Below, one piece after another: positions 44,151 through 64,000 of a stretch of 64,000 nt of DNA. Under the pieces are notes generated by a model. That model ran no database searches. It saw only the letters and a list, made by a program, of their open reading frames with translations, and was not told the DNA's origin. This DNA is from Antedon mediterranea (lineage: Eukaryota; Animalia; Echinodermata), in the NCBI RefSeq assembly GCF_964355755.1, contig NC_092679.1, forward strand, positions 12,321,432 to 12,385,431, in the 5' to 3' direction. The translations under genes were made by a program, and so were the position numbers. The first letter of the stretch is position 1, and every line of letters starts with the position of its first letter.

Positions 44151-47100
44151 CACAGCTGTTTCAACCAATGTAAAATAAATAGAAAAAGTCAAGCGCCCTC
44201 AATATTGTCAGACGGCGATATGTGCCTGAGCGTGACGCCGCGCGAGTGGTTGAATCTCGTTCAACTTTCGCGACATTTGCAACTTTTATAACTACACTTT
44301 AAATTATTTTAATCAATTTCGTCATAAATATTATAAAACCATTTTTATACTATTTGTTAGAAAATAAGTTTTTTAATTACCGATTTTTTGGAAATAATAA
44401 GTAATTAAGCATAACACCAAGTTTACGAAATTATTTACACCCGGAAGTTTTAAAAATTAACATCGATCGGCCTAGCAAATGTAAACAATGGAAAGTTTGA
44501 AAAAATGCTTGTCAAATTGTACACTTTTTGTTTTTATTCGTAATTTTCATAAATACTTGGAAAATCTAGGTAAAAGTTTGATTATATATGCTTACACGAG
44601 ACATTGAATTGTTAGGAGGTGACGGTGAAAATCTCAAGAAATTTTCATTGAAAAACTCGACTGTTTTGTTAAATGCGAAACAGCGTATTTGGCGAGAGGT
44701 CGATGAACGCGTCTGATAACCGCTCGCTAGGCTGTACGCAGCTAGGCCTAGGTTGTAGCTAGGCCTAGTTGGTACGTATAAGTAGTGGAATCATGCTATA
44801 CATCATTTTAATTTACAATAGATTAAATAATAAGCTTAATTATTATCATTGTATTTATTTCAACTGAATATAATTCATCATAAATGTAAATATTTAGTAA
44901 AACTACTAACTACCAGGCCTAGGCTAGGCCCTTAAAATTAAAGCCTATACAAAAATACTCAAACTACTGTATGATAAATATAATATAAAATTAAAGGTTG
45001 GTAAAATTAACATTTCTTTTCATTTTTGTAGGCAACACAGTTTCACGAAAAGGCTTTACGTTCTACTTGCTTTTGTTGTGGAACAAAATTTAAAGAAAAA
45101 GATAAAAAATACAATTTTTAAAATATGAAAAGCCGTCACAAATTTGCACTAAATCTAACAAATGTAAAATCACAACCTATATACATTTGTACAACCTGCC
45201 ATTCACGAATTTGCAATGGATACTGTATACTACCACGCTAACATTTAAATTAACAGGGCATGGACCAAATTGCTTGGCATGCTACACCAACAACTTACAA
45301 CAACTATGACCTGGGCAAAAACTACATTCACAAGTGAAAGAACACACTGGCGTTTAAGGGAACAGTTTTTTTATTTGGTACAGCTGCTCCATGATCTGCT
45401 TTTCTTCCTTATATCTTCACTCTTTTTGAAAGTTTATACTAACAAATTTATTTAAATGAACATACCTCATAATCAAATAACTGTTTTCTCATCCTAATTT
45501 ATATACATAGTTTAAAAACTGCCAATTTTCAATTAAGATTACATCATACATTGTACATTTCTATTCAACAAAATTGTCAGAACTTTCTATTATTTAAATG
45601 TGTAAGATAGTCAGGTCTCGGGTCCATTCTACAGTCACCACAGATTGACTTTTTCATCACAAAATTTCTGAAATTATAAAATGTATTAATGTGTAAATTA
45701 AGTATTTTTTTAATTACATAAAAAATATGATACAAGTATTTTTAGCAGAATACAGGCATATTGCACCAGGTGTAATACAGCCTAAGCTACATATGCTTGA
45801 GCACCATGCTATTGCATTCATGAGAGAATGGAAGGTGGTCTCTGAACAAGGCGGGGAGCTAATACATGCCAAACTCAACCGTCACAAAACAGCAGTGTGG
45901 ATTAGAGTCAAACTTAGACTCATCTGATTTTCACATCTCCAATGATACAAAATGAAATAATAAAACCAAACAAATGCAAGAAAGCCAACAAAAAATGATT
46001 CATTAACATTAATGATCATAAAATATTGTACATTTTTAAATGTTAAAGGAATATTGCATTGTATTGATTTCCTATTAACAATGCCTTATGATAATGAACA
46101 TGTAAAAGTAATACTATAGTATGTCTATATTTCAATTACCAACTAATTACTATTGATTGATAGTACTACTGCTGTACTGTACATGTGTTAGTGATTGATT
46201 GTTAAAGTTACAAATTCATAGCATGGTAAACACAATTTAAAATTTACTAGTTCTTGAACAGTAAAATAAACTTACCTATATAGATGATAGGTATTGGTCC
46301 AAATCTGTTTAAAATGTTTTAGCCATTTTGGGTTGCCGCTATACTATATTATTATGTACCTAAAAAATATTAATAGTAATAGTATAACATTATAATAAGA
46401 ATTAATTAAAATTAACTTATTATATTTACTATGGTTGCATACACACTAATTTGAATATGCAGTGATGAGCAAAAACAAATGTTAAAATTCATTATTTATA
46501 ATAATTGTAATTATTACATACAGGGTAGGCATATATGCCTTATGTCATTGCATAGGGTATATATAACCAGGTATCCTCATAATAAACATTATTTGTAATA
46601 AATACTGTAAATATATTAAAAATAAAAATTAATAATAGCCTCTAGGCCTAATTAGGTAGCCTACTAATACCTAGCCTATTGCTCTAGGCTAGGCTAAATA
46701 AGCTGGAAAGCTGCTTCTCTTAGGCTGCTAGTGCAAGAGAGCACAGGTCTAGCTAGTATATTAAAATAAAAATAGGGCCTAGCCTAGCCTAGCCCAGCCA
46801 GTGGTAGTGATTGGTTGTTAATATTGAAAATTAATAGCATGGTAAACACAATTTAAAATTGACTAGTTCTTGAACAGTAAAATAAACTTGCCTATAATAT
46901 AGATGGTAGGTATAGGTATTGGTCCAAATCTGTTTAAAATGATTTTTCCACTTCGGGTTGCCGCTATGTACCTAAAAAATAGTAAAACATTACTATAAGA
47001 ATTAATTAAAATTAGCTTATTAAATTTAATATGGTTGCATACATACTAATTTGAATATGCAGTGATGAGCAAAAACGAATGTTAAAATTCATTATTTATA

Positions 47101-49364
47101 ATAATTGTAATTATTACATACAGGGTAGGCATATATGCCTTATGTCATTGCATAGGGTATATATAACCAGGTATTCTCATAATAAACATTATTTAAATAA
47201 AATAAATAAATATATTAAAACTAAAATTAATAATAATTAAATAATAATATATAGGCGTAGAGCCTAGACCTAATTAGGTAGTCTACTTATACCTAGCCTA
47301 TTGCTCTAGGCTAGGCTAAATAAGCTGGAAAGCTGCTTCTCTGTAGGCTGCTAGTGTTAGAGAGCACAGGTCTAGCTAGTATATTAAAATAAAAATAGGG
47401 CCTATAATATAGGCCTAGCCTACCCAGCCACTGGTAGTGATTGATTGTTAATATTGAAAATTAATAGCATGGGTAAACACAATTTAAAATTTACTAGTTC
47501 TTGAGCAGTAAAATAAACTTACCTACTGTATATAGATGGTAGGCTGCTAGGTATTGGTCCAAATCTGTTTAAAATGTTTTTGCCACTTCGGGTTGCCGCT
47601 ATGTACCTACAAAATAGTAAAACATTATTATAAGAATTACTTAAAATTAGCTTATTAAATTTAATATGGTTGCATACATACTAATTTGAATATGCAGTGA
47701 TGAGCAAAAATGAATGTTAAAATTCATTATTTATAATAATTGTAATTATTACATACAGGGAAGGCATATATATGCCTTATGTCATTGCATAGGGTATATA
47801 TAACCAGGTATTCTCATAAGAAACATTATTTAAATAAATACTGTAAATATATTAAATTAAAATTAATAATAATTAAATAATAATATATAGGCGTAGAGCC
47901 TAGACCTAATTAGGTAGTCTACTTATACCTAGCCTAATTGCTCTAGGCTAGGCTAAATAAGCTGGAAAGCTGCTTCTCTGTAGGCTGCTGCTAGTGATAG
48001 AGAGCACAGGTCTAGCTAGTATATTAACATAAAAATAGGGCCTATCATATAGGCCTAGCCTACCCAGCCAGAGGTAGTGATTGATTGTTAATATTGAAAA
48101 TTAATAGCATGGTAAACACAATTTAATATTTGCTACTTCTTGAACAGCAAAATAATCTTACCTATATAGATGGTAGGTAATGGTCCAAATCTGCTTAGCC
48201 ACTTCAGGTTACTGCTCTATATATGTAGGCTACCTACAATAGTGTATAACATTAATAATTATTATAACAATTTTATAAAATTAACTTAACTTATTAAATT
48301 TAATATGATTGCATACTAATTTGAATATGCAGTGATGAGCAAAACCGAATGTTAATATGATGCTTGTCATTATTTATATTGTAATTATTACATACAGGGT
48401 AGGCCTATAGTATTCCCTATGTCATTGCATACATGGTATATATAATCCTCATAATATTAAATTTACAGTTTTTGTAATGAATACTGTAAATTTATTAAAA
48501 CTAAAATTAATTATACTGATTAAATAATATTAAAAATATATAGGCCTAGGCCTAGGCGTAGATCCTGGGCCTAATTTTAATTAGGTAGCCTACTAATACC
48601 TATTAGGCTAGTAGTAGGCTAGCCTACTCAAGGCCAGGCTAACTAAGCCGGAAAGCTGCTTCTCTGTAGTAGGCTGCTAGAGAGCACAGGTCTAGCTAGG
48701 GCCTAGGCCTAGTATTAAAATAAAAATAGGGCCTATAATATTGGTATATGCCTACCCTACCCAGCCAGGCCTAAATAATTAATATAATGTAACATTTCCA
48801 AACTCATTTGGGTCAGCTGTCACATGAAAGGCAGTGTTGCAACTAGAGTAGACACAAGCCTAAGCCTAAAAATGACACAATTTGAAACGGCCATAGCTCA
48901 AAAATTCAACCATCACCTCTCGACCATTACTATGTTATAACATTCACAGATAACTAAATTATCATGCAGTACCAAAGAATTAGAGTGAAAATTACATTTT
49001 TTAAAGATACGGACAAACAAACATGTACCAAATTTGGAAATGTCACTCACGTGCGTAAATTGGTATATGCTTGTATTTTATGGTCCACCCTTCCATTAAT
49101 TTTCAGCGTTACATTCCTTGTAAAAAACAAAACGACAACGTGCTTGTTTCATCCAGGGACTCTTTAATGAATATTCATATTTTTAGCGACCCTTTATTTT
49201 TTTATCTCATTCTCATTGGCTGTTTAAAACATGTCTTTAAATGACGTTTGACTCCACTCTGCACACGTGGATTTGTAAGTAATTGTTTATGTATTGTTAC
49301 TCCAGCGATACGACTTGTAACGTTGAGGGCGCATGACTTAATTCGTATGTTTGAAACAGCTGTG
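44151..49364 (+). mobile_element. Internally deleted Chapaev-type (CMC superfamily) DNA transposon
   Basis: 14-bp TIR CACAGCTGTTTCAA; 4-bp TSD TAAT; removal restores the in-frame EDQL-MNFKIDTGA. Remnants FHEKALRSTCFCCG..QPIYICTTC (from 45032) and PKLHMLEHH..SEQGGELIH (45727-45927). Confidence 0.85.
46189..48767. repeat. Four diverged tandem copies of a ~620-690 bp unit inside the Chapaev element
   Basis: Units begin tagtgattg at 46189, 46805, 47435 and 48075; they share gaatatgcagtgatgagcaaaa and gagcacaggtctagctag. Confidence 0.9.
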
Positions 49365-49366
49365 TA

Positions 49367-52300
49367 ATGAATTTTAAAATAGACACGGGAGCTGATGTAA
49401 CTGTCATAGACACTGCAAACATACCGAAAGGGAAATATCCCCTTTGCAAAGCTGATCGAAAGTTATATGGTCCGGGTAGAAACTTAATCCCAGTACTTGG
49501 AAAGTTCACAGCTAAGTTGAAACTCAAACAACAAAATACTGAGAGTATACAGGAGGTATACGTTGTAGAAAAACTGGAACAATCTTTGCTAGGGAGACCG
49601 GCTATTGAAGCCATGAAGTTAATTTATAAGGTTAATACTGTCAATGTAATATCAGACAAGTACTACAGACAGAATCATCCTAAGTTGTTCAAAGGATTGG
49701 GTAAACTGAAGGATACTTATAAAATCAGGCTGAGTCAAGACGCAAAGCCATTTGCCGTTTGTGCACCAAGAAGGGTACCAATACCACTGCAACAAAAGGT
49801 AGAAAAGGAACTACTGTACATCGATTGCAGAATTTAGACGTCATTAGACCGGTCACAACACCAACAGATTGGTGTGCACCAATTGTAGTAGTTCCTAAGC
49901 CAAGAAATGACACAGTCAGACTTTGTGTTGACCTAACCAAACTAAACGAGAGTGTGAAAAGGGAAAATTACCCTCTGCCGTCAACTGATCAATTGTTAGC
50001 CCAGTTGAAGGGTGCGAAGTTTTTTACCAAGCTCGATTGTAATAGTGGGTTTTACCAGGTCCCATTAGACGCAGAGTCACAAGAGTTGACTACATTTATT
50101 ACGCCATTCGGGCGTTTTTGTTTTAAAAGATTACCTTTTGGAATTTCGTCGGGTCCAGAAATTTTTCACCGAATCATGGCACAGATGCTATCAGGGATTC
50201 CGGGTGTGATTTGTGACATCGACGATGATTTGTGACATCGACGATGTTTTGATATCAGGTCAAAGTGAACAGGAACATGATGACAGAGTACACAAGGTTC
50301 TACTAAAAATGGAATCGGCTGGAATCACGCTGAATGAAAAATGTGAATTCAAACTCACGAGTATTAAGTTTTTAGGTCATGTTCTGTCAGCACAGGGAGT
50401 ACAGATGGATCCTAACAAGGTGGAAGCTATACAAAAATTCCCAAGACCAACCAATGTCCCAGAACTACGTAGATTAATGGGATTGGTTAATTTTGTTAGG
50501 AAATTCTCCCCAGATCTAGCAGATGAAACAAAGCCGATGCGTGATCTACTTAAGAAAGAGACAAAGTGGATGTGGGACGTGATGCAGGAGCAAGCTTTTA
50601 CTAAACTGAAAAAGAAGCTGTGCTCACCACCAGTACTAGCTCACTATAGTCCACATCTACCTACTAAAGTTTCTGCTGATGCATCATCATATGGACTTAG
50701 GGCAGTGTTGCTGCAAGAAACAGAGATGTGCTGGCGACCAGTCTTTTATGCTTCGAGATCGATGACCACAACAGAGCAGCGATATGCACAAGTTGAAAAA
50801 GAAGCTTTGGCTGCTACTTGGGCTTGTGAAAAATTTGCAGATTTCTTAGTTGGCTTACCAACGTTCACTATAGAAACAGATCATCGCCCATTACTTGCAC
50901 TTTTGAAGACAAAGGCTATTGATGAGCTTACACCGAGAATCCAAAGATTTCGTATGAGATTAATGAGATATACATATCAGATGAAATACACAGCTGGAAA
51001 AGACTTGACTACAGCTGATGCGCTTTCTCGAGCTCCAGTGGGACTTCCAGATAAAAGTGAAGTTGAGTTGGCGGAGTCGACAGCTGCATTTGTGCATGAA
51101 GTAGTTGATGCATTAACAGCAACAACACAGAAATTAAACAAGATTAAAGAGGCACAAATGGCTGATCCCGAATGCACACAGGTGATAAAATTTACCAAGG
51201 AGGGATGGCCTAGGCAAGGAAGAATCGACTCCAATCTTATTCCGTACTATCAAATCCGAGATGACCTTACAGTATTAGATGGATTGTTAATGTTTGGCAC
51301 CAGACTTGTAATCCCGGATCCTCTAAGAGGTGACATCTTAAGTCGTATACATGCAGGACATCAAGGGATCGTAAAATGCAGAGCTCTAGCTAAAATATCG
51401 GTTTGGTGGCCAGGGATTAGTAAGACAATCCAGAATCTAGTAGACAAGTGTACAGTATGTGAAAAAGAAAAACGACAGCGACCAGAACCGTTGCAGCCAA
51501 GTAAAGTTCCAGAATACCCATGGCAGCATTTGGCTATGGATCTTTTTGAGTGGAATGGACGTAATTACTTGCTTGTCGTAGACTATTTTTCTAGATTTAT
51601 AGAAATTGCATACCTTAAGTCATCCACCTCATCAGAAACAGTTATTGAACATTTAAAGAGCATATTTGCTAGACATGGAGTGCCAGAAAAGGTTAGATCA
51701 GACAATGGCCCTCAATTTTCATCATATAGTTTTGCTCGATTTGCAGACAATTATGGATTTTACCATGAATGTAGCAGTCCATACTTCCCACAAAGTAATG
51801 GAGAAGCCGAAAGGGCGGTTCAGACAATCAAGAACTTGCTGAAAAAAGCGGATGATCCATATATGGCATTGTTAAATTACAGGGCAACACCATTACAATC
51901 AGGATTTAGTCCAGCTGAGATGTTAATAGGAAGGAAAATACGAACAAGAGTTCCTATTGTGACCAACAGCTTGACACCAGACTGGCCTCAATTCGACAAA
52001 ATGATTGCAACAGACCAATCAAGAAAAGAGAAAATGAAAATGTCATTTGATAAAAAGCATAGAGCAAAAGAACTATCAAACTTACCTGTGGGAGAGAAAG
52101 TGTGGATAACACACCCAATGGAACGAAGTGGTACCGTACATCGTAGAGTTGCACCAAGATCATATGAGATCCAAACTTCAACAGGAGTTACAAGGCGAAA
52201 TCGAAAACACCTTAGTAGACGGTCAGAGTTGTATCCTCCGAGGATGCATCCAATACGGGAGGGATCGACCTTGCCCCCGGTGGCAGGTCAAAATAACAAT

Positions 52301-52423
52301 GATTTTGATTGCTTTACAGATACTGGTACTGAACAGATAGAAGGTCCTCAACTTAACCACAATCAACAATATAAGACCAGAAGTGGGCGACTAATCAAGC
52401 CCCCAGAAAAATTGGATTTGTAA
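49367..52423 (+). pseudogene. pol: Gypsy pol (protease, RT, RNase H, integrase) with two frameshifts
   Basis: DTGA; RLCVDL..LN; LPFG; CDIDD; ADASSYG; ETDHRPL; H..H..C..C; SDNGPQF; SNGEAER. Frameshifts come from a 5-bp insertion at about 49814 and a 19-bp duplication at 50208-50245. Confidence 0.95.
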
Positions 52424-52790: not shown

Positions 52791-54235
52791 CAACGCACGT
52801 CCATAACCCATATATAAATCATTATCATTCATTTCTGGTTTCGTCATGCTTCATGCGTAATCATAATATAGGTAGAGAAATATAATGATTTTTAATGTTT
52901 TCTGCATGAGAAGAATAATAGTACTGTAGGCAGAGTGACGGAGATACGATAGGCCTACAGTAATTGAATCATACCTCAACAGAATTCATATAACAGGTAT
53001 GTTGCATTGTAACCATACATTTTCAAAAGTAATGTTTCCTCACATCGTGGTAAAGTACGACCGAGCTATAGCATTGTGAGGTCCATAATTGTAAAAAGTA
53101 AAATTGCTGGAAATTGTCAAAAATGGCCGACACTGCATTGATAGTATTGAGTAAAGAGCTGCTGATTGCTGATTGATTGATTTTATAGAAATTATATACG
53201 TTATAAAAGTGTTATTAATGTTAATAAACTAAAACTAATAAACAACAATAACCTCTCGTTACACTATATGTTCAATTACCCTCTAGCAATGTGTTGCAAT
53301 TCATATGATCATGGAGAAATAATTTCCCCATGATATATGATAAAGAGGACCACAATACAATTCATTGTACACAGTTGTAGGTTGCGAATCGATTTCCTGT
53401 TCAATGCTGGATCCAATCGGAATGTGCCATGTGACCGAAATAAAATAACAATTACCAATTTTAAAATTGAATGAATTGAATTTACCACACCAAATTCAAA
53501 TGAGATCGCGATTTGAAATTAGATAAAGCTAATAGAGATAAAAGTTTTGGAAGACATAATGCCGAAAATGTTTGTGACTACATTTTTTAAATACATTGTG
53601 GCATAATTAGCTTAACTTCTCAAATTATAAATTCTTATTTGCGTAATTTGGTGCAACACATATCTAAATGACATCACAGTATCTTACTACAGAAAAAAGC
53701 ACTGCGGGCAATGACATGGCTTAAATACAATAATTCTGTTACAGGTAGGCTACCTTTCGAATATAGACTACTTAAAGTAGGAATAATAATGTATTATGTT
53801 GTAAACAATATGAATCCACGACTTGTAAACCTCTTTAAATATGGATACAACACACAATTACAATACTAAAAGAAGCAACTCTTACAACCACAAAGACGCG
53901 GACGCTTACACTGCGCCGGACGCGATTTTTTTTTCGTACATAAGTAATAATAAACATGAATAATTCATTAGTTGTTCACAATTCACGTGATTGCCTTCGC
54001 GTACTCTTCTTCACACACACCACCATCCACCATGCATATTACTTCTAGGCCTTATATTAGCTAGCTCTCTCTCTCTCTCGCTCTTCTGCCTGTTCGTTCA
54101 AAAGAAGAACGGTTGCTGTTACACATCTTTCTGCGTATATGAACACATGAGATGGAAAGATTAGACCTACGAGAATAAAGAATGTATATCATTTGTGGTG
54201 TTTCGAAACTAGAGACCCGAGACCAGAGACCCGAG

Positions 54236-54435
54236 ACCCAATACGAAAAGGGAGACCCCACTATACGAAAAGGGAGACCCAAATATACGAAAAGGGAGAC
54301 CCAAATATACGAAAAGGGAGACCTAAATATACGAAAAGGGAGACCCAAATATACGAAAAGGGAGACCCAAATATACGAAAATGGAAACCCAATTATACGA
54401 AAAGGGAGACCCAAATATACGAAAATAGAAACCTA
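54236..54435. repeat. 22-bp minisatellite (aaatatacgaaaagggagaccc), about 9 copies
   Basis: Direct tandem repeats, preceded by short gagaccc repeats. Confidence 0.92.
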
Positions 54436-55406
54436 AAATATACAGTTATTACGTCGGCCCAGAGCCGCCTTAAGTGTAAAAACTCAAAACCAAAGTTTTG
54501 TTCACAGCCAGTGTTTTAGGTCGGCCCAGGGGTTGCCTTTCGAACGTTCACAACGGTTGTTTTCCGCCGAACAGGAAGATTCAGGCAGCTCGCTTGGCAT
54601 GCTGGGAAGGGGATATTCTCAAAACACAATATAGTTGACCCTATGAAGGCGACCCAAACAATTTCAATCATTATCCAATATGACACATTACACATGAGTT
54701 AAAGCAGATGTTATAAACATCTGTATTATTTAATATACAGCCGAGAATGTTACATTCTATTTTCACTCCTTTCTGCATTAATTAATATTTACATTTTATA
54801 AAAATAGATGGGAAACCACCACGAAAGATTGAAATATATATCATTATTTCTATTGACAGTCGATTCTCAAAATTTTCATCAATGCAACAACATACTCCCG
54901 CCCTGGCTAGTAATTATATACAAGGCCCTTGTTGCCTTTACTATATAAGGAAGCGGCGCGACCCTAGGATGGGTAGGAGGAGAGTTTGCAGGCTTATTAT
55001 ATGTACACAGCGTTAAAAGCTTCACAACATATATAAATAAATCCAGGCTATTACTCAATATTTTTTACATCAAGTTTCTGCTTTAATATGATTTGTAAAA
55101 ATATGTTTTCAATCAATACAATGAATCAATGTACACTTATGTGGATAATGAAACAATGCAAAATTATAATTTTAATGATAATGATATAATGATGATAGTA
55201 ACGAGAGAATAAATACTTTCACCCGAACCATAAAAAATCCACCCTGGCTACGGGCCCGAATTGGCTGTCGGACATAACAAAAGTTTAAACTTGATTGCGC
55301 TCTAAAAAAAAAGAACTGAATATATTAAAAAACGATATTCAATACATAAAAAAAACCTCATATGCTCAAACTATAAGTAAGCTCGCAACCTATTAGTAGT
55401 AAAAGA

Positions 55407-56132
55407 GGTACTTTAGCCCAAAGTTGACCTTGGGGTATTTCATGGTGGTTGCGCAATAGTTATGTAATTTCCACCAGATGTTTCTAATGAAGGTCATTCA
55501 TGTCCTGGTACTTCAACCCAAGGTTGACCTTGGTGTATTTCCTGGTGGTTACGTAATAATAATAATAATAATAAATAATATATTTATACAGGATAAAACA
55601 ATCAGATAACAGTGTATCTGTTTTACATCGTGGTCCTGTCTTAATCAAAATATACAAAAAGAGAAACTTAATTAAATATAATACATGTCAGTTTTTTATG
55701 AAAAGGAATGAGCTTTGTATCTAGCCTTAAAGGACGTAACTGTTGGGGCCGATTTAATATTAACTGGTAAATTGTTCCATATTTTTGAGCCTGCAACTTT
55801 AAAGGACGAATGTAATTTCCACCAGATGTTTCTAATGAAGGTCGTTCATTTCCTGGTACTTCAGCCCAAAGTTGGCCTTGGTGTATTTCCTGGTAGTTAC
55901 ATAATAGTTATATAATTTCCACCAGATGTTTCTAATGAAGGTCGTTCATTTCCTGGTACTTCAGCCCAAGGTTGGCCTTGGTGTATTTCCTGGTAGTTAC
56001 GTAATAGTTATATAATTTCCACCAGATGTTTCTAATGAAGGTCGTTCATTTCCTGGTACTTCAGCCCAAAGCTGGCCTTGGTGTATTTCCTGGTAGTTTC
56101 GCAATAGATATGTAATTTCCGCCAGGTGTTTC
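55407..56132. repeat. 100-bp tandem repeats in the putative Polinton TIR
   Basis: Units starting ggtact at 55407, 55507 (interrupted), 55855, 55955, 56055. Confidence 0.92.
55556..55810 (-). mobile_element. 5'-truncated LINE (CR1/L2 group) 3' end inserted in the 100-bp repeats
   Basis: Minus strand encodes SFKVAGSKIWNNLPVNIKSAPTVTSFKARYK (ORF2 C-terminal WN.LP motif), then a 3' stem-loop and a (TTA)n tail. Confidence 0.75.
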
Positions 56133-56939: not shown

Positions 56940-59900
56940 ATGGCTCATTACGAATCATCATCATCATCTTCCGATTCTAACGATAGCTTGTTTATCGAAT
57001 GCCAGAGAGCAGTAGAAGCTATCGTTAGTTTATCGCGAAACAATATCGAAAATATCGATACCGACGATGTTATCCCCGATGTTGACCTACTAGAAGATTT
57101 CGTATTTAATGACCAGGATCTTGATTTAGATGTTAGCCAGAGTTTTTCCGAAGCCGATAGCCTCTCACTTTCGGATATTTGTAATAACGCTATTGAGATA
57201 GTGCAGGAGCTATCGGCTAATTTGCGTATTGATGACGTAGAAGTAAGTGTTTGTTTATTTTATTTTTACGTAATATTTATTTTACCGTGTATAATTCTTA
57301 AAAAGTAGATTGTGTGTAACCGAACGTGTGTTTACAGCGTTTTACGGCTTCTTTGTGTTTCTTTCTAAGTTATTTATTTATTTTTAAAATTTTTTTGTTT
57401 ACCGTGTATATCTCATAAAGTAGTAGTTTATGTAATTGGGGCATTTACAAAGTGTTTCTGCGTTTACGGTTTATATACGTTTTCCTTTCTAATTTATCTA
57501 ATTATTTTTTTTCTGTATAGTACGGTGTTGGTGCTCACACCAAATGTTTGAGTTTGAGAGGAAACGTCGAGATTAATGATTCAGCGGAGTCTTCGATTAT
57601 TGAGGTAACTATCGTTTTATTTTCTTTACTACTGCTGTTGTTGTTGTTGTTGTTGTACAACGTCTTTTATTTCTTTTTCTTTACCGTTTTTCTCTTTTTG
57701 TTTTCAGCCTGCACCCATACAATACGGAAGGGGCGTTAATAGAAAGAGGCTCAGAATCGAAGACGGAGAAGAAGAAGAAGAAGAATTTGCCGATATTGAT
57801 ACCGTTGAAGACGAGGATCTTAACCTTGATGAGGTAGAGTTGAATCACTTCTGTAGAATCGTTCAAGTAGCTGATAGGTATAATCAACGTTTTAACGCGA
57901 CTATTAGCGATTTTTTAGTAAATTTTTTTAATATTGATCATATAAGTTTAGAGGTGTTTCTGCCCACACTGTATCGAATTTTCGAGCATGTCGTCGATAA
58001 TCTCTGCGTTAACGTGCATGTCGACGACATGCTTCGAATAGTCATACAGGCTGAGGGGTTAGATTCACCTATCTCTATCCCTTTTGGACGGAGGGGCCAT
58101 CTTACGGCTGACGTTATTTTTGCAGCCATTATGAAGGTCCTTCAGTCCAAAACGGATATTTTTATTAATAACAAGTTTAAATTTAACGTTCTTCACATGA
58201 GAATGCCTAGGGGTGGGGGCTATAGAAGAAACGGTATCGACATATTGTTAAATGCTAAATGTATAATTAAGATTATGAATGATGATAACGAAACTATCTG
58301 CTGCGCACGCGCTATTGTTACGGGTATTTCTATGCTCGAAGATAAAATTAACAACGTGGCTAGATGGAATAACATTAGGCAAGGTAGGGGTCAGCAAAAA
58401 ATAGCCGCCCTTCATTTACTTAGAGATTCGGGGGTTAGGGAGCAGACATGCGGCATCGAGGAAATAAAAAAGATGCAATCAAAATTACCAAATTATCAAA
58501 TTATTGTCATTTCAAAAGACAATTTAAATTCTGTCATTTTTAGCGGCGATTATAGAAAGAAGCAGATATATCTTTATCATCATTCTAATCATTACGATCT
58601 CATAACCACAATGACAGGTTTTCTAAAAATTGACTATTTTTGCGATAGATGCCATAAGGGGTATATTCACAAGTACCAACACAATTGTCAATTTACGTGC
58701 GTGCTGTGCAAGCACAACGACTGCCCCTCTTCTAATTCTTTTGAAAATAGAGAGAGTAGAATAGAATGTAAAGAATGTAATAGATTTTTTAAGGATAGGC
58801 AATGTTTCACCAATCATAAACAATCTCCTGATTCTAAAAAAGTTTCAGTATGTGACAAAATTAAAAATTGTTCAATTTGTAATAGGATCGTTCAAAAAGA
58901 TCACAATTGTCAAAACCGTTTTTGTAGAATTTGTAGGACTTTCGTTTCATACGATCATCAATGCTACATGGAACCGGTTGTAGCCCCTAAGCATACTGAA
59001 AAAAAGTTTAAGAATCAGGAGGCCCGTAACAGAGCTGTCACTAAATATTTCTTTTTTGATTTCGAATGCACGCAAGATACAGGCGAACACAAACCAAATT
59101 TATGCGTTCTTCAAAAAACTTGTCTTAATTGTATCGACGGCGCTAATGATTCCGCCGATTGTGACGTGTGTGGGGATAAAACAGTGGTTTTTCACGGGGG
59201 GTCTGCATGCGAAGATTTCTGCAATTACGTATTCAAAGATTACAAATTTAACGAGAATATTACGTGTATCGCTCACAACTTCCAGGGTTATGATAGCTAC
59301 TTCGTGCTCAACTACCTGTACGAAAACTCCATTGTACCGGATGTAATTGCTCGCGGTGGTAAACTTATTTCGATTAGGACTAAAGAAACGAGCATTCGAT
59401 TCATCGATTCCCTTTCATTTCTGCCCATGCCTCTATCCAAATTGCCCAAAACTTTTGGCATCTCCGAACTTAAAAAGGGTTACTTTCCTCATTATTTCAA
59501 TTCTTTAGAAAACCAAAATTACGTAGGTCCTTACCCCGATTCTTCAAATTATTCCCCCGATAAAATGACTACTTCAGGCCGAGAATCTTTCTTTAAATGG
59601 TACAACCAGAAAATTGATAGTAATCAAGTATTTGATCTTAAAAAAGAACTCGTCGAGTATTGTATCAGCGATGTAGATATTCTCAGAAAGTGTTGTCTTA
59701 CTTTTAGACATCTTTTTTTGAAAGTAACTATATCGCCGAAAAACCCTCTACTCGGCGGTGTTGACCCCTTTTCAAATAATTTAATGACAATTGCCTCAGC
59801 GTGTAACCACGTATTTTCTAGAAATTTTTTAAAACCATCCACCATCGCTCTATTTCCACCATCAGGGTATCTAACAACCGTTAACCATTCTCACTCTAGC

Positions 59901-61643
59901 ATGGAATGGCTGTGCTACGAGTCGCATAAAAGGGGGGTCTTTATCCATCATGCCAGAAATGGAGGGGAAAAAATGTTTGGGCCTTACTCCGTCGACGGCG
60001 CATGTTTAGAAAGCAAAATAATTTTCGAGTTTATGGGTTGTTTTTTCCACGGGTGCCAAGATTGTTATAGACCCGATTCCATTAATCCCTTCAATAACGA
60101 GACCATGTTGGAATGCTTTGTCAAGACAAGCAAGAAAACACGGTTTCTGAAGGAACAATTTCCAGATTTCGAATACGTCGAAATTTGGGGACACGAATGG
60201 AACCGGATCAAACAATCGTTGGCCCCAAACATTAAATCTATCGTCTCCAAAGTTCCTTTAATTAGGCACACTTTGAATCCAAGAGACGCGTTTTTCGGTG
60301 GGAGGACTAATGCCAGTTGTTTGTTCTATAAGGTAAAACCGGGTGAAGAAATTAATTACATAGATTATACCTCCTTGTACCCTTATGTAAATAAATACGG
60401 TACCTACCCCGTAGGGCATCCTGAAATCAATGATCGCAACGACATGTCCACGGATATCAACGATTATTTCGGCTTGATAAAGTGTACAATCGAAGCGCCT
60501 AAAAAATTATTCCATCCGGTCTTACCTTATAGATCAAACGGTAAATTAATGTTTGCTCTCTGTAGAACATGCGCCGATTCCCAACAACAAACCGCTTGCA
60601 ATCATTCCGGTACAGATAGAGAATTTACGGGTTCTTGGGCAACGATCGAAGTCGCTAAAGCCGTGGAAGTTGGGTACGAGATACGTAAAGTTCACGTAGT
60701 GTGGCACTTTAAAAATAAAAGCGCTTACTCTGCAGATTCTCCCTCGTCCGGTCTATTTGCCTCTTACATTAACACCTTTTTAAAATTGAAACAAGAAGCT
60801 TCGGGCTGGCCTGAATGGTGTAAAACGCCCGAAGGTAAACAAAAATACATTTCGGACTATCGAACCGTAGAAGGTATCGACTTGAATCATGACGACATTG
60901 CGTACAATCCTGGGCTTCGATCTCTGGCCAAATTAATGCTAAATAGTTTTTGGGGTAAATTTGGCCAGCGTGAAAATCTCACGAAAATTAAATATACGCA
61001 AGATCCTAACGAGGTTTACGATATTTTATCGAACCCTGGGATAACCGTTCATGACATAAATTTTGTTAATGATAATTTGGCGGAGGTAAAATACGAGGAC
61101 GAGGAACAATTTGTAGAAGTTAACCGAAAGGTTAACGTTGTCATTGCCGCATTTACCACAGCGTTAGCGCGTTTAAAATTGTACGAGCTGTTGGAACAAT
61201 TGCAGGAGCGCGTCCTGTATTATGATACCGACAGCGTAATCTTCGTATCAAAACCCGGGGATTGGGACCCTCCCCTGGGCGACTATTTGGGTCAGTTAAC
61301 GACCGAGGTCGATCCTAAAGAGGGTAAATTCATCGAGTCCTTTGTTTCTGGGGGGCCTAAGAACTACGCCTATAAATTGGATACGGGGAAGACCGTTTGT
61401 AAAGTTAAGGGTTTTACCCTTAACTTTACAAACGCTCAGAAAATTAATTTTGACACCGTCTCCAATATGGTAAGGGGTGTTGGCCCCGATACAATCAAGA
61501 CGGTTGAGAAGAATCGCATAACGCGCAAGCCAAAAACACGAAAGATAGTCAACGAAACATCGACTAAAGACTATCGAATCGTGTACGACAAAAGAATTAT
61601 TATCGAAAATTATCGTACAGTTCCTTACGGGTATGTTTGGTGA
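56940..61643 (+). CDS. polB: Protein-primed family B DNA polymerase; predicted exons 56940-57242, 57521-57604, 57708-61643; about 1440 aa
   Basis: Exonuclease motifs FFDFEC, AHNFQGYD, YCISDVDIL; polymerase motifs DYTSLYP, KLMLNSFWGKFGQ, YYDTDS; zinc-finger clusters. The long ORF has no early ATG, and two phase-0 GT-AG introns join it to upstream exons. Confidence 0.93.
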
Positions 61644-61839: not shown

Positions 61840-62375
61840 TAAAGTCGAATTTTTGCGGGGTTAAGTAAATATATTTTTAAATATTTTTCCGCTTGATTTT
61901 CTTTTGTCGATACCGTTTCTCTTTTTGTAGATTAAGTACATATATTTCGTAATTTTAATTTAAATATTTTACCACTTGAATTCTTATGTCGATACCGTTT
62001 CTCCTTTTTGTAAATTAAGTAAATATATTTTTCCACTTGAATTTCTTATGTCGATACCGTTTCTCCTTTTTGTAGATTAAGTAAATATTGTTATAACTGT
62101 TTTAATGTTAATAAATTTTATACTTATAATATCTATTTTTATAGATTAAGCAATATTTCTGTAATTTTAATTTAAATATTTTACCACTTGAATTCTTATG
62201 TCGATACCGTTTCTCTTTTTTTTTTTTTGTAGATTAAGTAAATTTTATACTTATAATATCTATTTTTATAGATTAAGCAATATTTTTTGTAATTTTAATT
62301 TAAATATTTTTCGACTTGAATTCTTATGTCGATACCGTTTCTCATTTTGCGGATTAAGCAAATACATTTTTGTAA
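61840..62375. repeat. Degenerate tandem repeats between the converging polB and Bcl-2-like genes
   Basis: Core tgtcgataccgtttctc recurs five times (about 61906, 61987, 62049, 62199, 62327) with gattaag/aaatattt modules. Confidence 0.8.
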
Positions 62376-62601
62376 AGTTATTTTTGTTTTATACGAAATT
62401 TGAAATAAATTTAATCACTGTACTTGTTTTATAATATATATACTTGGCTGTTTCTTAATGTTGACGTAGACGATGACGATAACAAACAACAACAACAATA
62501 GACGTACGTAATGGTGACTGTAATTTTTTATTTTATCGTATCCAATATAAATATTGTAATCTCTCCTCTTTCTCGTTTAAATTTTTTTTATTTATCCGAC
62601 G

Positions 62602-62776
62602 TCACCAAACAATTCGTTCCAGCAAGGCCTTATAAAAGCCTACTAGCCAGTCGATCAAGTACCATGCTTTGTTAATTCCTAGCTTCGTACTACATAGAAC
62701 AAGTTCCTATAAAAATAATAATAATAAATAAAAGATAATATAGAAACACTTGATTACCGAAAAATGAGAATAATTG

Positions 62777-62813
<37 letters not shown>

Positions 62814-63181
62814 AATTTACTTACCAAATCACTGTCGTTACAAAGTTCTAACGAGGAAAACTTTTCCTTCACAAATTCGCAAGAAACGTGTAAAACGTTT
62901 TCTAATTCTAAACCAGTAGCACACTGCGTGGCAACACTTGCGCACACTGAAATTCCTGTCACGAGTCTACCGACGTGTATGTTTTGATCAATCATCATTT
63001 GTTTCAGCACACTATCCAGCGTCTCCGAAGTAATTTCGTTACACAATGCAATCAATCCATACTTTTTCTCCACCTCGTTACAAAGGCGAATAGTACTATG
63101 GAGGATTGGGGAATCCCACACAACTTTCCCCGTTAATTTATATTCAATGTACGATAAAGTTAGTTTTTCCAAATCTGCCAT
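62602..63181 (-). CDS. Bcl-2-family-like protein, two exons (63181-62825, 62706-62602), 153 aa
   Basis: BH4-like LEKLTLSYIEYKL, BH3-like IRLCNEVEKKY, BH1-like VLKQMMIDQNIHVGRLVT. A 118-nt GTAAGT...TTTATAG intron; exon 2 is open in phase 0 and ends AWYLIDWLVGFYKALLERIVW. Confidence 0.72.
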
Positions 63182-63390
63182 TTCTCTCTCTATTAGTACA
63201 CGGCCGTTAATGACGTTGGAATTGATTTTTAGGTTTTGATATACAATCAATCGTTTACGTAATTATCTTTATTAATCTCCTATTGGTTTATATTCTCGTC
63301 TCCCTTCCCCTTTCATTTATTCTATATTGGGTTGTTATACCTCGTTATAAAGTACCGATATACAAAGGCGATGAATCATTAAAACTGAAG

Positions 63391-64000
63391 ATGACGTGTG
63401 TACTGGTAACCCCCTTCACCGCCGTAATTAGTGGACCGACCTCATCGGGGAAATCATATTTCGTGAAGCAATTATTGGAAAGCAATTATTTCGATAAGCC
63501 GTTCGATGACATCACGTGGTGTTATGGTGAATATCAACCCCTTTTCACCGAACTGAGCGGGTCTATTAACAACATTCAATTTATAGAAGGAATACCTATG
63601 GATTCGATAGAAACGATGGAACCGTCAAAAAACCATTTAGTAATCATCGATGATTTAATGACCGAGTGTAGTCGCGATAAAAGAGTGGTAAATATGTTTA
63701 CAAAGGGGTCGCATCATAGAAACATTTCGGTTATGTTCATTATGCAAAACTTTTTCTACGGTTCTAAAGAAATCCGTACCATCACTTTAAACGCTCACTA
63801 TATAATACTGTTTAAAAACCCTCGGGATAAATCTCAAATAGCTAACCTATCCAAACAAATGTACCCCGGCAAAGGACGATTTCTACAGGAGGCTTTTGAA
63901 GACGCTACCCGTGTACCGTACGGCTTTCTTTTAATCGACCTAAAAGCAAATACTCCGGAGGAGATGAGAGTTAGAAGTAACATATTTTCAAAAAATAATC
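63391..64000 (+). CDS. Polinton genome-packaging ATPase (A32/FtsK-like), truncated by the window end
   Basis: Translated by hand from the ATG at 63391: PFTAVISGPTSSGKS (Walker A), LVIIDDLM (Walker B), FTKGSHHRNISV, LFKNPRD. Confidence 0.93.
   Translation, partial: MTCVLVTPFTAVISGPTSSGKSYFVKQLLESNYFDKPFDDITWCYGEYQPLFTELSGSINNIQFIEGIPMDSIETMEPSKNHLVIIDDLMTECSRDKRVVNMFTKGSHHRNISVMFIMQNFFYGSKEIRTITLNAHYIILFKNPRDKSQIANLSKQMYPGKGRFLQEAFEDATRVPYGFLLIDLKANTPEEMRVRSNIFSKNN

Follow-up and report, generated by a model that had tools for sequence, protein, structure and literature searches.

A Bcl-2-like gene with a predicted intron at or near the host BH2 position in a Polinton of Antedon mediterranea

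The DNA considered here, which we refer to as the window, is a 64,000-nucleotide stretch of the genome of the echinoderm Antedon mediterranea, in which a short minus-strand gene lies between the DNA polymerase and packaging ATPase genes of a mobile element. From the letters alone, this gene had been proposed to be an apoptosis regulator of the Bcl-2 type that was taken from a host together with its intron. The locus raises the questions of (i) whether the gene is real and what kind of element carries it; (ii) whether its product belongs to the Bcl-2 family and protects the cell; and (iii) whether its intron was inherited from a host gene or was gained within the element. The answer that we favor, with a probability of roughly 0.5, is that this is a diverged Bcl-2 gene that was captured as DNA from an animal host, kept its BH2 intron and encodes a survival protein. 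A fuller version, in which the element is an echinoderm-associated Polinton and its DNA-captured pro-survival Bcl-2 gene, BH2 intron kept, is functional and spliced even though the motif has eroded beyond recognition, is held slightly more tentatively.

The gene and the element that carries it

The features on which the analysis draws are the following, in window coordinates:

62825..63181, minus strand: exon 1 of the Bcl-2-like gene (119 codons, 357 nt), with six predicted helices and the BH4- to BH2-equivalent regions
62966..62977, minus strand: BH1-equivalent HVGR (residues 69-72), Gly-Arg kept and Asn-Trp lost relative to crinoid relatives
62707..62824, minus strand: predicted phase-0 spliceosomal intron of the Bcl-2-like gene (118 nt, GT-AG, 68% T)
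62602..62706, minus strand: predicted exon 2 of the Bcl-2-like gene (34 codons plus stop), with the last helix and the tail
62527..62592, minus strand: two AATAAA, candidate polyadenylation signals 3' of the stop (starts 62592 and 62532; consensus match only)
63182..63390, no strand: divergent intergenic region between the Bcl-2-like gene and the ATPase (209 nt), a putative promoter region
63391..64000, plus strand: packaging ATPase (Pox_A32 / IVa2-like), cut by the window end; Pox_A32 above the Pfam cut-off
57708..61643, plus strand: protein-primed DNA polymerase B (polB), main exon (PF03175, E 2.9e-45; first in-frame ATG at 58029)
56940-57242 and 57521-57604, plus strand: two predicted upstream exons of polB, joined by phase-0 GT-AG introns
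55395..55400, plus strand: AGTAGT, candidate left terminus of the element; 100-nt subterminal repeats then extend to about 56130

The gene is present at this location, with two open exons and splice consensus at their borders. It starts at an ATG at 63181 on the minus strand and has a product of 153 amino acids over both exons, so that the two-exon gene model of the original prediction holds to the exact coordinate. Also correct was the earlier remark that the open reading frame track reads through a poly-T intron and misses exon 2: the plain frame (62690-63181) runs through the intron, which contains a long T run, and acquires a poly-Phe tail. Among the GT sites of the minus strand between 62560 and 63200, the donor is the top consensus match (7 of 9 positions, against 6 for the next best). 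None of the other AG sites among the 10 listed has a pyrimidine tract as rich as that of the acceptor, which opens the 34-codon frame in phase 0. The GC content is 0.395 in exon 1 and 0.41 in exon 2, as compared with 0.395 in polB, and falls to 0.127 in the intron and 0.27 in the 3' flank. The tail in exon 2 is moderately hydrophobic and possibly amphipathic, and the 209-nt region upstream of the gene contains a TATAAA (63292, minus strand). On the strength of these signals, splicing of the gene is predicted. Four read runs over 62816-63900, a stretch that ends 9 nt into the intron, contained no spliced junction, and all four cover the intergenic DNA; run X5, which had been guessed to be RNA, was set aside, as it covers this DNA in the same way as the other runs.

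With both a PF03175 polymerase and an A32/FtsK-type packaging ATPase, the element is an integrated Polinton/Maverick (adintovirus) of an animal genome. Polintons are bounded by terminal inverted repeats that start with AGTAGT, with a 6-bp target duplication; the AGTAGT at 55395, the candidate left end, matches the motif given in a passage of PMC8097293. The window stops inside the ATPase; the right end of the element and its integrase and capsid genes lie outside. The element itself appears to use introns, as judged from the polymerase gene: the polB frame continues 5' of its first ATG as far as an acceptor at 57707, and the upstream extension weakly matches a crinoid polB leader (pairwise E 0.003). 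Both upstream polB exons (56940-58029 region, plus strand) are acidic, and the third exon opens with a QYGRG segment and a basic cluster; we take the QYGRG segment to resemble a viral protease site.

Several repeats were noted in and near the element. The 3' ends of polB and the Bcl-2-like gene converge on an AT-rich array (61860-62360), in which imperfect repeats share a GTCGATACCGTTTCTC core that recurs at intervals of about 60-150 nt. The subterminal repeats (55407-56130) are broken at about 55565-55800 by an unrelated stretch that starts with a TAA run and is possibly a retroelement remnant. Upstream of the Polinton are a Gypsy-type LTR retrotransposon remnant (49367-52423, plus strand) with protease, partial reverse transcriptase, RNase H and integrase; a tandem repeat with a 22-nt unit in about 8-10 copies (54219-54460); and, by eye, larger imperfect tandem units of about 600 nt (about 46200-48800) that are rich in CTAG and GGCCTAGGCC palindromes.

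The gene recurs in other copies of the element, diverged copies being found in two organisms. Contigs of these two organisms, from three studies, cover exon 1 with identities that range from near-identical to below 90%; those of the best-matching organism may come from the window's own source. Single contigs of one organism span the start codon of the gene and reach into the ATPase (63163-63411), one contig of the other links the gene start to the intergenic region, and contigs from both align across the intron donor. In one contig from another copy, the similarity ends 7 nt inside the intron and gives way to unrelated sequence, which would be expected if the splice signal alone were constrained.

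The copies also permit a rough view of selection, which is limited to the 40 listed of 146 differences and is pooled over several copies. Half of the 20 differences listed for exon 1 are synonymous and half are not, while 21% synonymous would be expected (P 0.004; with an expectation of 30%, P 0.048); one apparent stop, which consists of two differences in the same codon and at the same depth that were scored singly, was counted as non-synonymous. The rough dN/dS for exon 1, drawn from pooled copies and a filtered list of differences, is 0.27. In the ATPase, 8 of 8 listed differences are synonymous. Indels occur in some copies, and one type is frameshifting. The copies of the Bcl-2-like gene thus appear to be under purifying selection, although this comparison is indicative only.

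These data bear on the view that the gene is decaying cargo or that its splicing is mis-modelled, so that an inert product would end near the donor or enter the T run. The frameshifting indels, the eroded motifs described below and the absence of an RNA junction from four read runs that reach just 9 nt into the intron would fit such a view. Against it are the two open exons with their polB-like GC content, interrupted by a sharply AT-rich intron, the synonymous excess in exon 1 and the alignment of contigs from two organisms across the donor, and we regard it as very improbable.

Related ATPases were used to ask how widely this cargo occurs. Of the 120 ATPase matches listed, those with a named source come from sea cucumbers; an rve integrase and adenain accompany related ATPases at their loci. 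No Bcl-2 relative was found by tblastn, family profile or Pfam in 80 metagenome loci with related ATPases, these being the best 80 of at least 526 confirmed, with an ATPase identity of 46-53% for most; the Pfam search covered 144 representatives of 515 open reading frames of 85-260 amino acids. Six scans of viral contigs gave no loci, two of them with 4 and 2 confirmed stretches. The Bcl-2 cargo is lineage-restricted in the sense that it is not universal near related ATPases, in a set of loci in which many contigs are short. Other cargo near related ATPases includes a BIR (IAP) domain, a RING finger, PC4, a phospholipase A2-like domain and GRF zinc fingers (L008:2186-2608, minus strand; L037:148-477, plus; L079:7493-8095, minus; L064:1194-1706, plus; L016:563-1102, plus).

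Family membership, crinoid relatives and likely role of the product

Exon 1 matches the Pfam Bcl-2 family (PF00452) with an E-value of 5e-4 and 21 bits, below the curated cut-off of 31.4. In ESM Atlas, the first two matches of exon 1 are Bcl-2 clusters (0.92; the family is assigned to 29-30% of members), followed by a poxvirus Bcl-2-like cluster (0.92) and an E1B-19K cluster (0.89), with a recognition value of 2298 that is just below the threshold of the tool. With a profile built from five crinoid relatives, exon 1 is the sole match at E ≤1 among 8365 frames, at E 1e-13; one of these relatives clears the Pfam Bcl-2 cut-off with 44.8 bits. A sequence search of solved structures with exon 1 gave 0 matches at E up to 10, and a word-based homologue search gave 0 matches among 8 candidates.

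The structure models cover exon 1 only. A model based on seq­uences of seven proteins has a pLDDT of 63 and six helices, its last residues being at pLDDT 42. In a Foldseek search of the PDB with this model, Bcl-2-family chains occupy every row listed (best E 0.019); none of the exon 1 models gave a match at E 0.001 or better. Structural realignment to Bcl-2-family chains aligned 111-119 residues with an rmsd of 2.9-3.5 and Z-scores of 11.2-12.4, which the alignment tool rates as middling for helical bundles. The best viral fold match is the adenovirus E1B small T-antigen (E 0.052), and poxvirus Bcl-2-like proteins are also among the viral matches. The single-sequence model (pLDDT 55) reached a Z-score of only up to 5.8, with a non-Bcl-2 protein in the top row. 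Together, these several lines of sequence and model evidence make the Bcl-2 fold of exon 1, as originally predicted, secure.

An HMMER search of 1.84 billion cluster representatives with exon 1 returned four matches, two of which are genuine (P0124 and P0126). P0123 was rejected as a relative, being a repeat protein with only 27 residues matched; P0125 has 2100 amino acids, of which 38 residues matched. The best genuine relative is XP_033096042.1 of the feather star Anneissia japonica, with canonical NWGR and WIKNQGGW; it is modelled as a fusion to a Polinton polB, and its polB part is 59% identical to that of the window over 134 amino acids. Four further such genes exist in A. japonica (XP_033096041.1, XP_033096711.1, XP_033123993.1 and XP_033121109.1). 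These models, annotated as 'bcl-2-related protein A1-like', are the nearest relatives of the window gene (28-29% identity); they are short and multi-copy, share a YIEYK...WDSP N-terminus and, unlike the window gene, keep NW(G/S)R and GGW. Exon 2 showed no match to the crinoid tail tested. With the A. japonica relative P0130 as the query, ESM Atlas gave only leads below 0.9, which are BID/Bcl2L15-like. Among the five RefSeq models (P0124 and P0130-P0133), two have consecutive accessions and lie on contigs of equal length. All five are probably Polinton cargo annotated as host genes, and may inflate host Bcl-2 counts.

Compared with these relatives, the motifs of the window protein are strongly eroded. 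The canonical BH1 NWGR and BH2 WIxxxGGW are absent from exon 1: the HVGR that had been noted in place of NWGR is indeed found, only its Gly-Arg being retained, and there is no GGW, so that the BH1 tryptophan and both BH2 tryptophans are lost. Divergent BH motifs are common among viral Bcl-2 proteins. In alignments, the Gly-Asp that Bax has in BH3 is missing from the corresponding segment of the window protein, which is similar to that of A1/Bfl-1; the BH3 Asp of Bax is needed for its killer role. The hydrophobic or amphipathic tail that had been proposed is moderately hydrophobic, but its best 19-residue hydropathy of 0.89 does not indicate a clear transmembrane helix, and its amphipathic moment of 1.55, which was reached by 309 of 5000 shuffles, is borderline.

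Because the Gly-Asp of Bax is missing and the segment resembles A1/Bfl-1, a survival role is suggested rather than a killer role, and the product is likely a survival protein that blocks cell death. By analogy, it may act as adenovirus E1B-19K does. Proteins with this fold can have other roles, however: poxvirus proteins of the N1/A46 type block innate-immune or autophagy signalling. Accordingly, the gene and its inherited intron could both be real while the product serves such a block, or promotes death or lysis. The degradation of BH1 and BH2 relative to the crinoid relatives would be compatible with a role of this kind, as would the tail without a clear transmembrane anchor and the rank of poxvirus Bcl-2-like proteins among the ESM Atlas clusters and viral fold matches. 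Yet the BH1 Gly-Arg is retained, the Gly-Asp of a killer BH3 is absent, and the best structural rows are pro-survival proteins, though these are over-represented in the PDB; we consider a role other than survival unlikely.

Position and origin of the intron

According to passages of PMC8998228, mouse pro-survival genes share with Bcl-2-like genes of sponge and placozoan, and with sponge Bak, a conserved exon boundary after the GGW of BH2. The intron that had been described for vertebrate genes is conserved over a wider range, which extends from sponge and placozoan to mouse.

We compared the junction of the window gene with this site in the five crinoid proteins. The profile alignment is firm as far as EFVKEKF; the crinoid BH2 Trp follows 10 residues past the Phe of this segment, and the window junction 11 past it. 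In ungapped scoring, the last 17 residues of exon 1 prefer W+1 in five of five crinoid proteins and the first 8 residues of exon 2 do so in four of five, while the last 6 residues of exon 1 prefer W+0 in one and W-1 in four; scores are low throughout. As W+1 is preferred when no gaps are allowed, exact coincidence with the host site needs a one-residue gap. At the codon level, by contrast, the three codons that end exon 1 all differ from the motif codons by at most one base, a resemblance that was noticed post hoc; triplets that close to motif codons number 3 of 117 in exon 1 and 19 of 1202 in polB. This resemblance favors W+0 for the junction. Structural end-points were left out of the register, the model tail being unreliable. 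On these alignments, the predicted intron is at, or within one codon after, the position of the BH2 Trp, and has the same phase as the host intron. The by-eye alignment of the junction with the post-GGW intron therefore stands to within one codon, and the exact site is placed one residue later by ungapped scoring.

Two routes could lead to this arrangement. The gene may have entered the element without an intron, from mRNA or from another virus, and later gained one near the end of BH2, much as polB seems to have acquired its own. The two predicted phase-0 GT-AG introns of polB, when set against vertebrate Maverick core genes, which a passage of PMC8097293 describes as intronless, make such a gain conceivable, as does the best ungapped register, which is one codon off the host site. 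Poxvirus gene capture, furthermore, goes through spliced RNA, as related in PMC9578709. Set against this route, an intron inserted at random has a chance of 0.7% (same phase) to 1.5% (any phase) of landing no more than one codon from the host site, figures that rise somewhat if new introns prefer splice-like sites, and the codon-level resemblance favors the exact host site. Of the 20 residues on either side of the BH2 Trp, two crinoid paralogues share 11 before it and 2 after it, which fits an exon switch at this point, although divergence of the tail gives the same pattern. Later gain of the intron is, on balance, a rather improbable origin.

Because chance placement within one codon is expected in only about 1% of cases, we favor inheritance: given the gene model, and despite the introns of polB, the intron was probably inherited from the host. 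DNA-level capture with the intron kept, as the original prediction had it, is the likeliest explanation, tempered by the choice between W+0 and W+1, the decayed BH2 and polB's own introns.

Under capture with the intron kept, the course of events might be as follows. A Bcl-2-like gene would have been taken up from an animal host as genomic DNA with its BH2 intron, which the host spliceosome would remove. The gene would be transcribed away from the ATPase, from the common 209-nt region, and exon 2 would supply the last helix and a membrane-seeking tail that could direct the protein to mitochondrial or ER membranes. A groove with the retained BH1 Gly-Arg would bind the BH3 helix of host Bax/Bak or of BH3-only proteins, and the cell would be kept alive while the linear DNA of the element is copied, packaged or re-integrated. 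The cycle served in this way could be infectious or purely intracellular. An infectious phase, which had been regarded as implied by the gene, does not follow from it, since an integrated element would profit from a survival gene as well, and no capsid gene is in view.

Significance and comparison with known systems

If the favored reading is true, Polintons take apoptosis regulators straight from the chromosome, which fits an integrating element that is transcribed in the nucleus, and the gene would be a viral Bcl-2 whose intron, rather than its sequence, records the route of capture, in an element that splices its own polymerase too. The intron would, moreover, mark which of the Bcl-2 genes of such elements come from one capture. 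The route by which DNA viruses acquire host genes is mostly unknown, and retained introns are a rare sign of DNA capture, according to the text of PMC9578709. A death blocker under selection would argue that the cycle of the element stresses or kills cells; this bears on the question of Polintons as viruses without settling it. For annotation, the locus illustrates that methods based on open reading frames truncate spliced Polinton cargo genes such as this one.

The suspicion that anti-apoptotic genes of related animal viruses might already be on record proved right: Bcl2 and IAP homologues have been reported in adintoviruses (Starrett et al. 2021, PMC8502044; preprint 10.1101/697771), and 'Bcl2' occurs three times in a supplementary file of PMC8502044 with genome maps. 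These are the same kind of gene in the same setting: a gene of Bcl-2 type whose animal element also has a PF03175 polymerase and a packaging ATPase. The window gene differs in having two exons with an intron at or near the host site; in the accessible text of PMC8502044, the adintovirus Bcl2 is given without mention of an intron, 'splic' does not occur, and the lone 'intron' refers to group II maturases. The literature covered, which leaves most subscription journals outside, yielded no Bcl-2 gene of a virus or Polinton that carries the host BH2 intron, and the accessible parts of PMC6431247, PMC11071296 and 10.64898/2026.10.13.758929 contain nothing on one. A host-position intron in a Polinton Bcl-2 gene thus appears to be unreported, the host position itself being probable; since each ingredient has precedent, the advance is incremental.

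Among viral proteins, adenovirus E1B-19K and other viral Bcl-2 proteins likewise show a divergent Bcl-2 fold in a lineage that bears a polB and a packaging ATPase; the match of the window protein to the E1B small T-antigen, at E 0.052, is a weak one and does not demonstrate shared origin. In ovine herpesvirus 2, vIL-10 has kept the host intron structure, which is cited in PMC9578709 as evidence of DNA-mediated capture; it is another gene in another class of virus, and intron retention in the window gene is deduced from a single junction. Nematode Mavericks carry intron-containing wasp and krma cargo that is read as host-derived (Widen et al., 10.1101/2022.07.12.499685, in the text available). 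Those genes encode proteases and kinases and lie between the left end and the integrase, whereas the window gene encodes an apoptosis regulator and sits between polB and the ATPase.

The closest parallel in gene structure is found in animals. Bcl-2, Bcl-xL, Mcl-1 and A1/Bfl-1 have the same fold and a coding region divided into two exons where BH2 ends, and, like the window gene, these pro-survival genes carry the tail on the last exon, as described in passages of PMC8998228. The window protein is only 11-22% identical to animal pro-survival Bcl-2 proteins in structural alignments and has lost the motif tryptophans; its gene, in contrast to theirs, lies in a mobile element and has its predicted intron in register W+0 or W+1.
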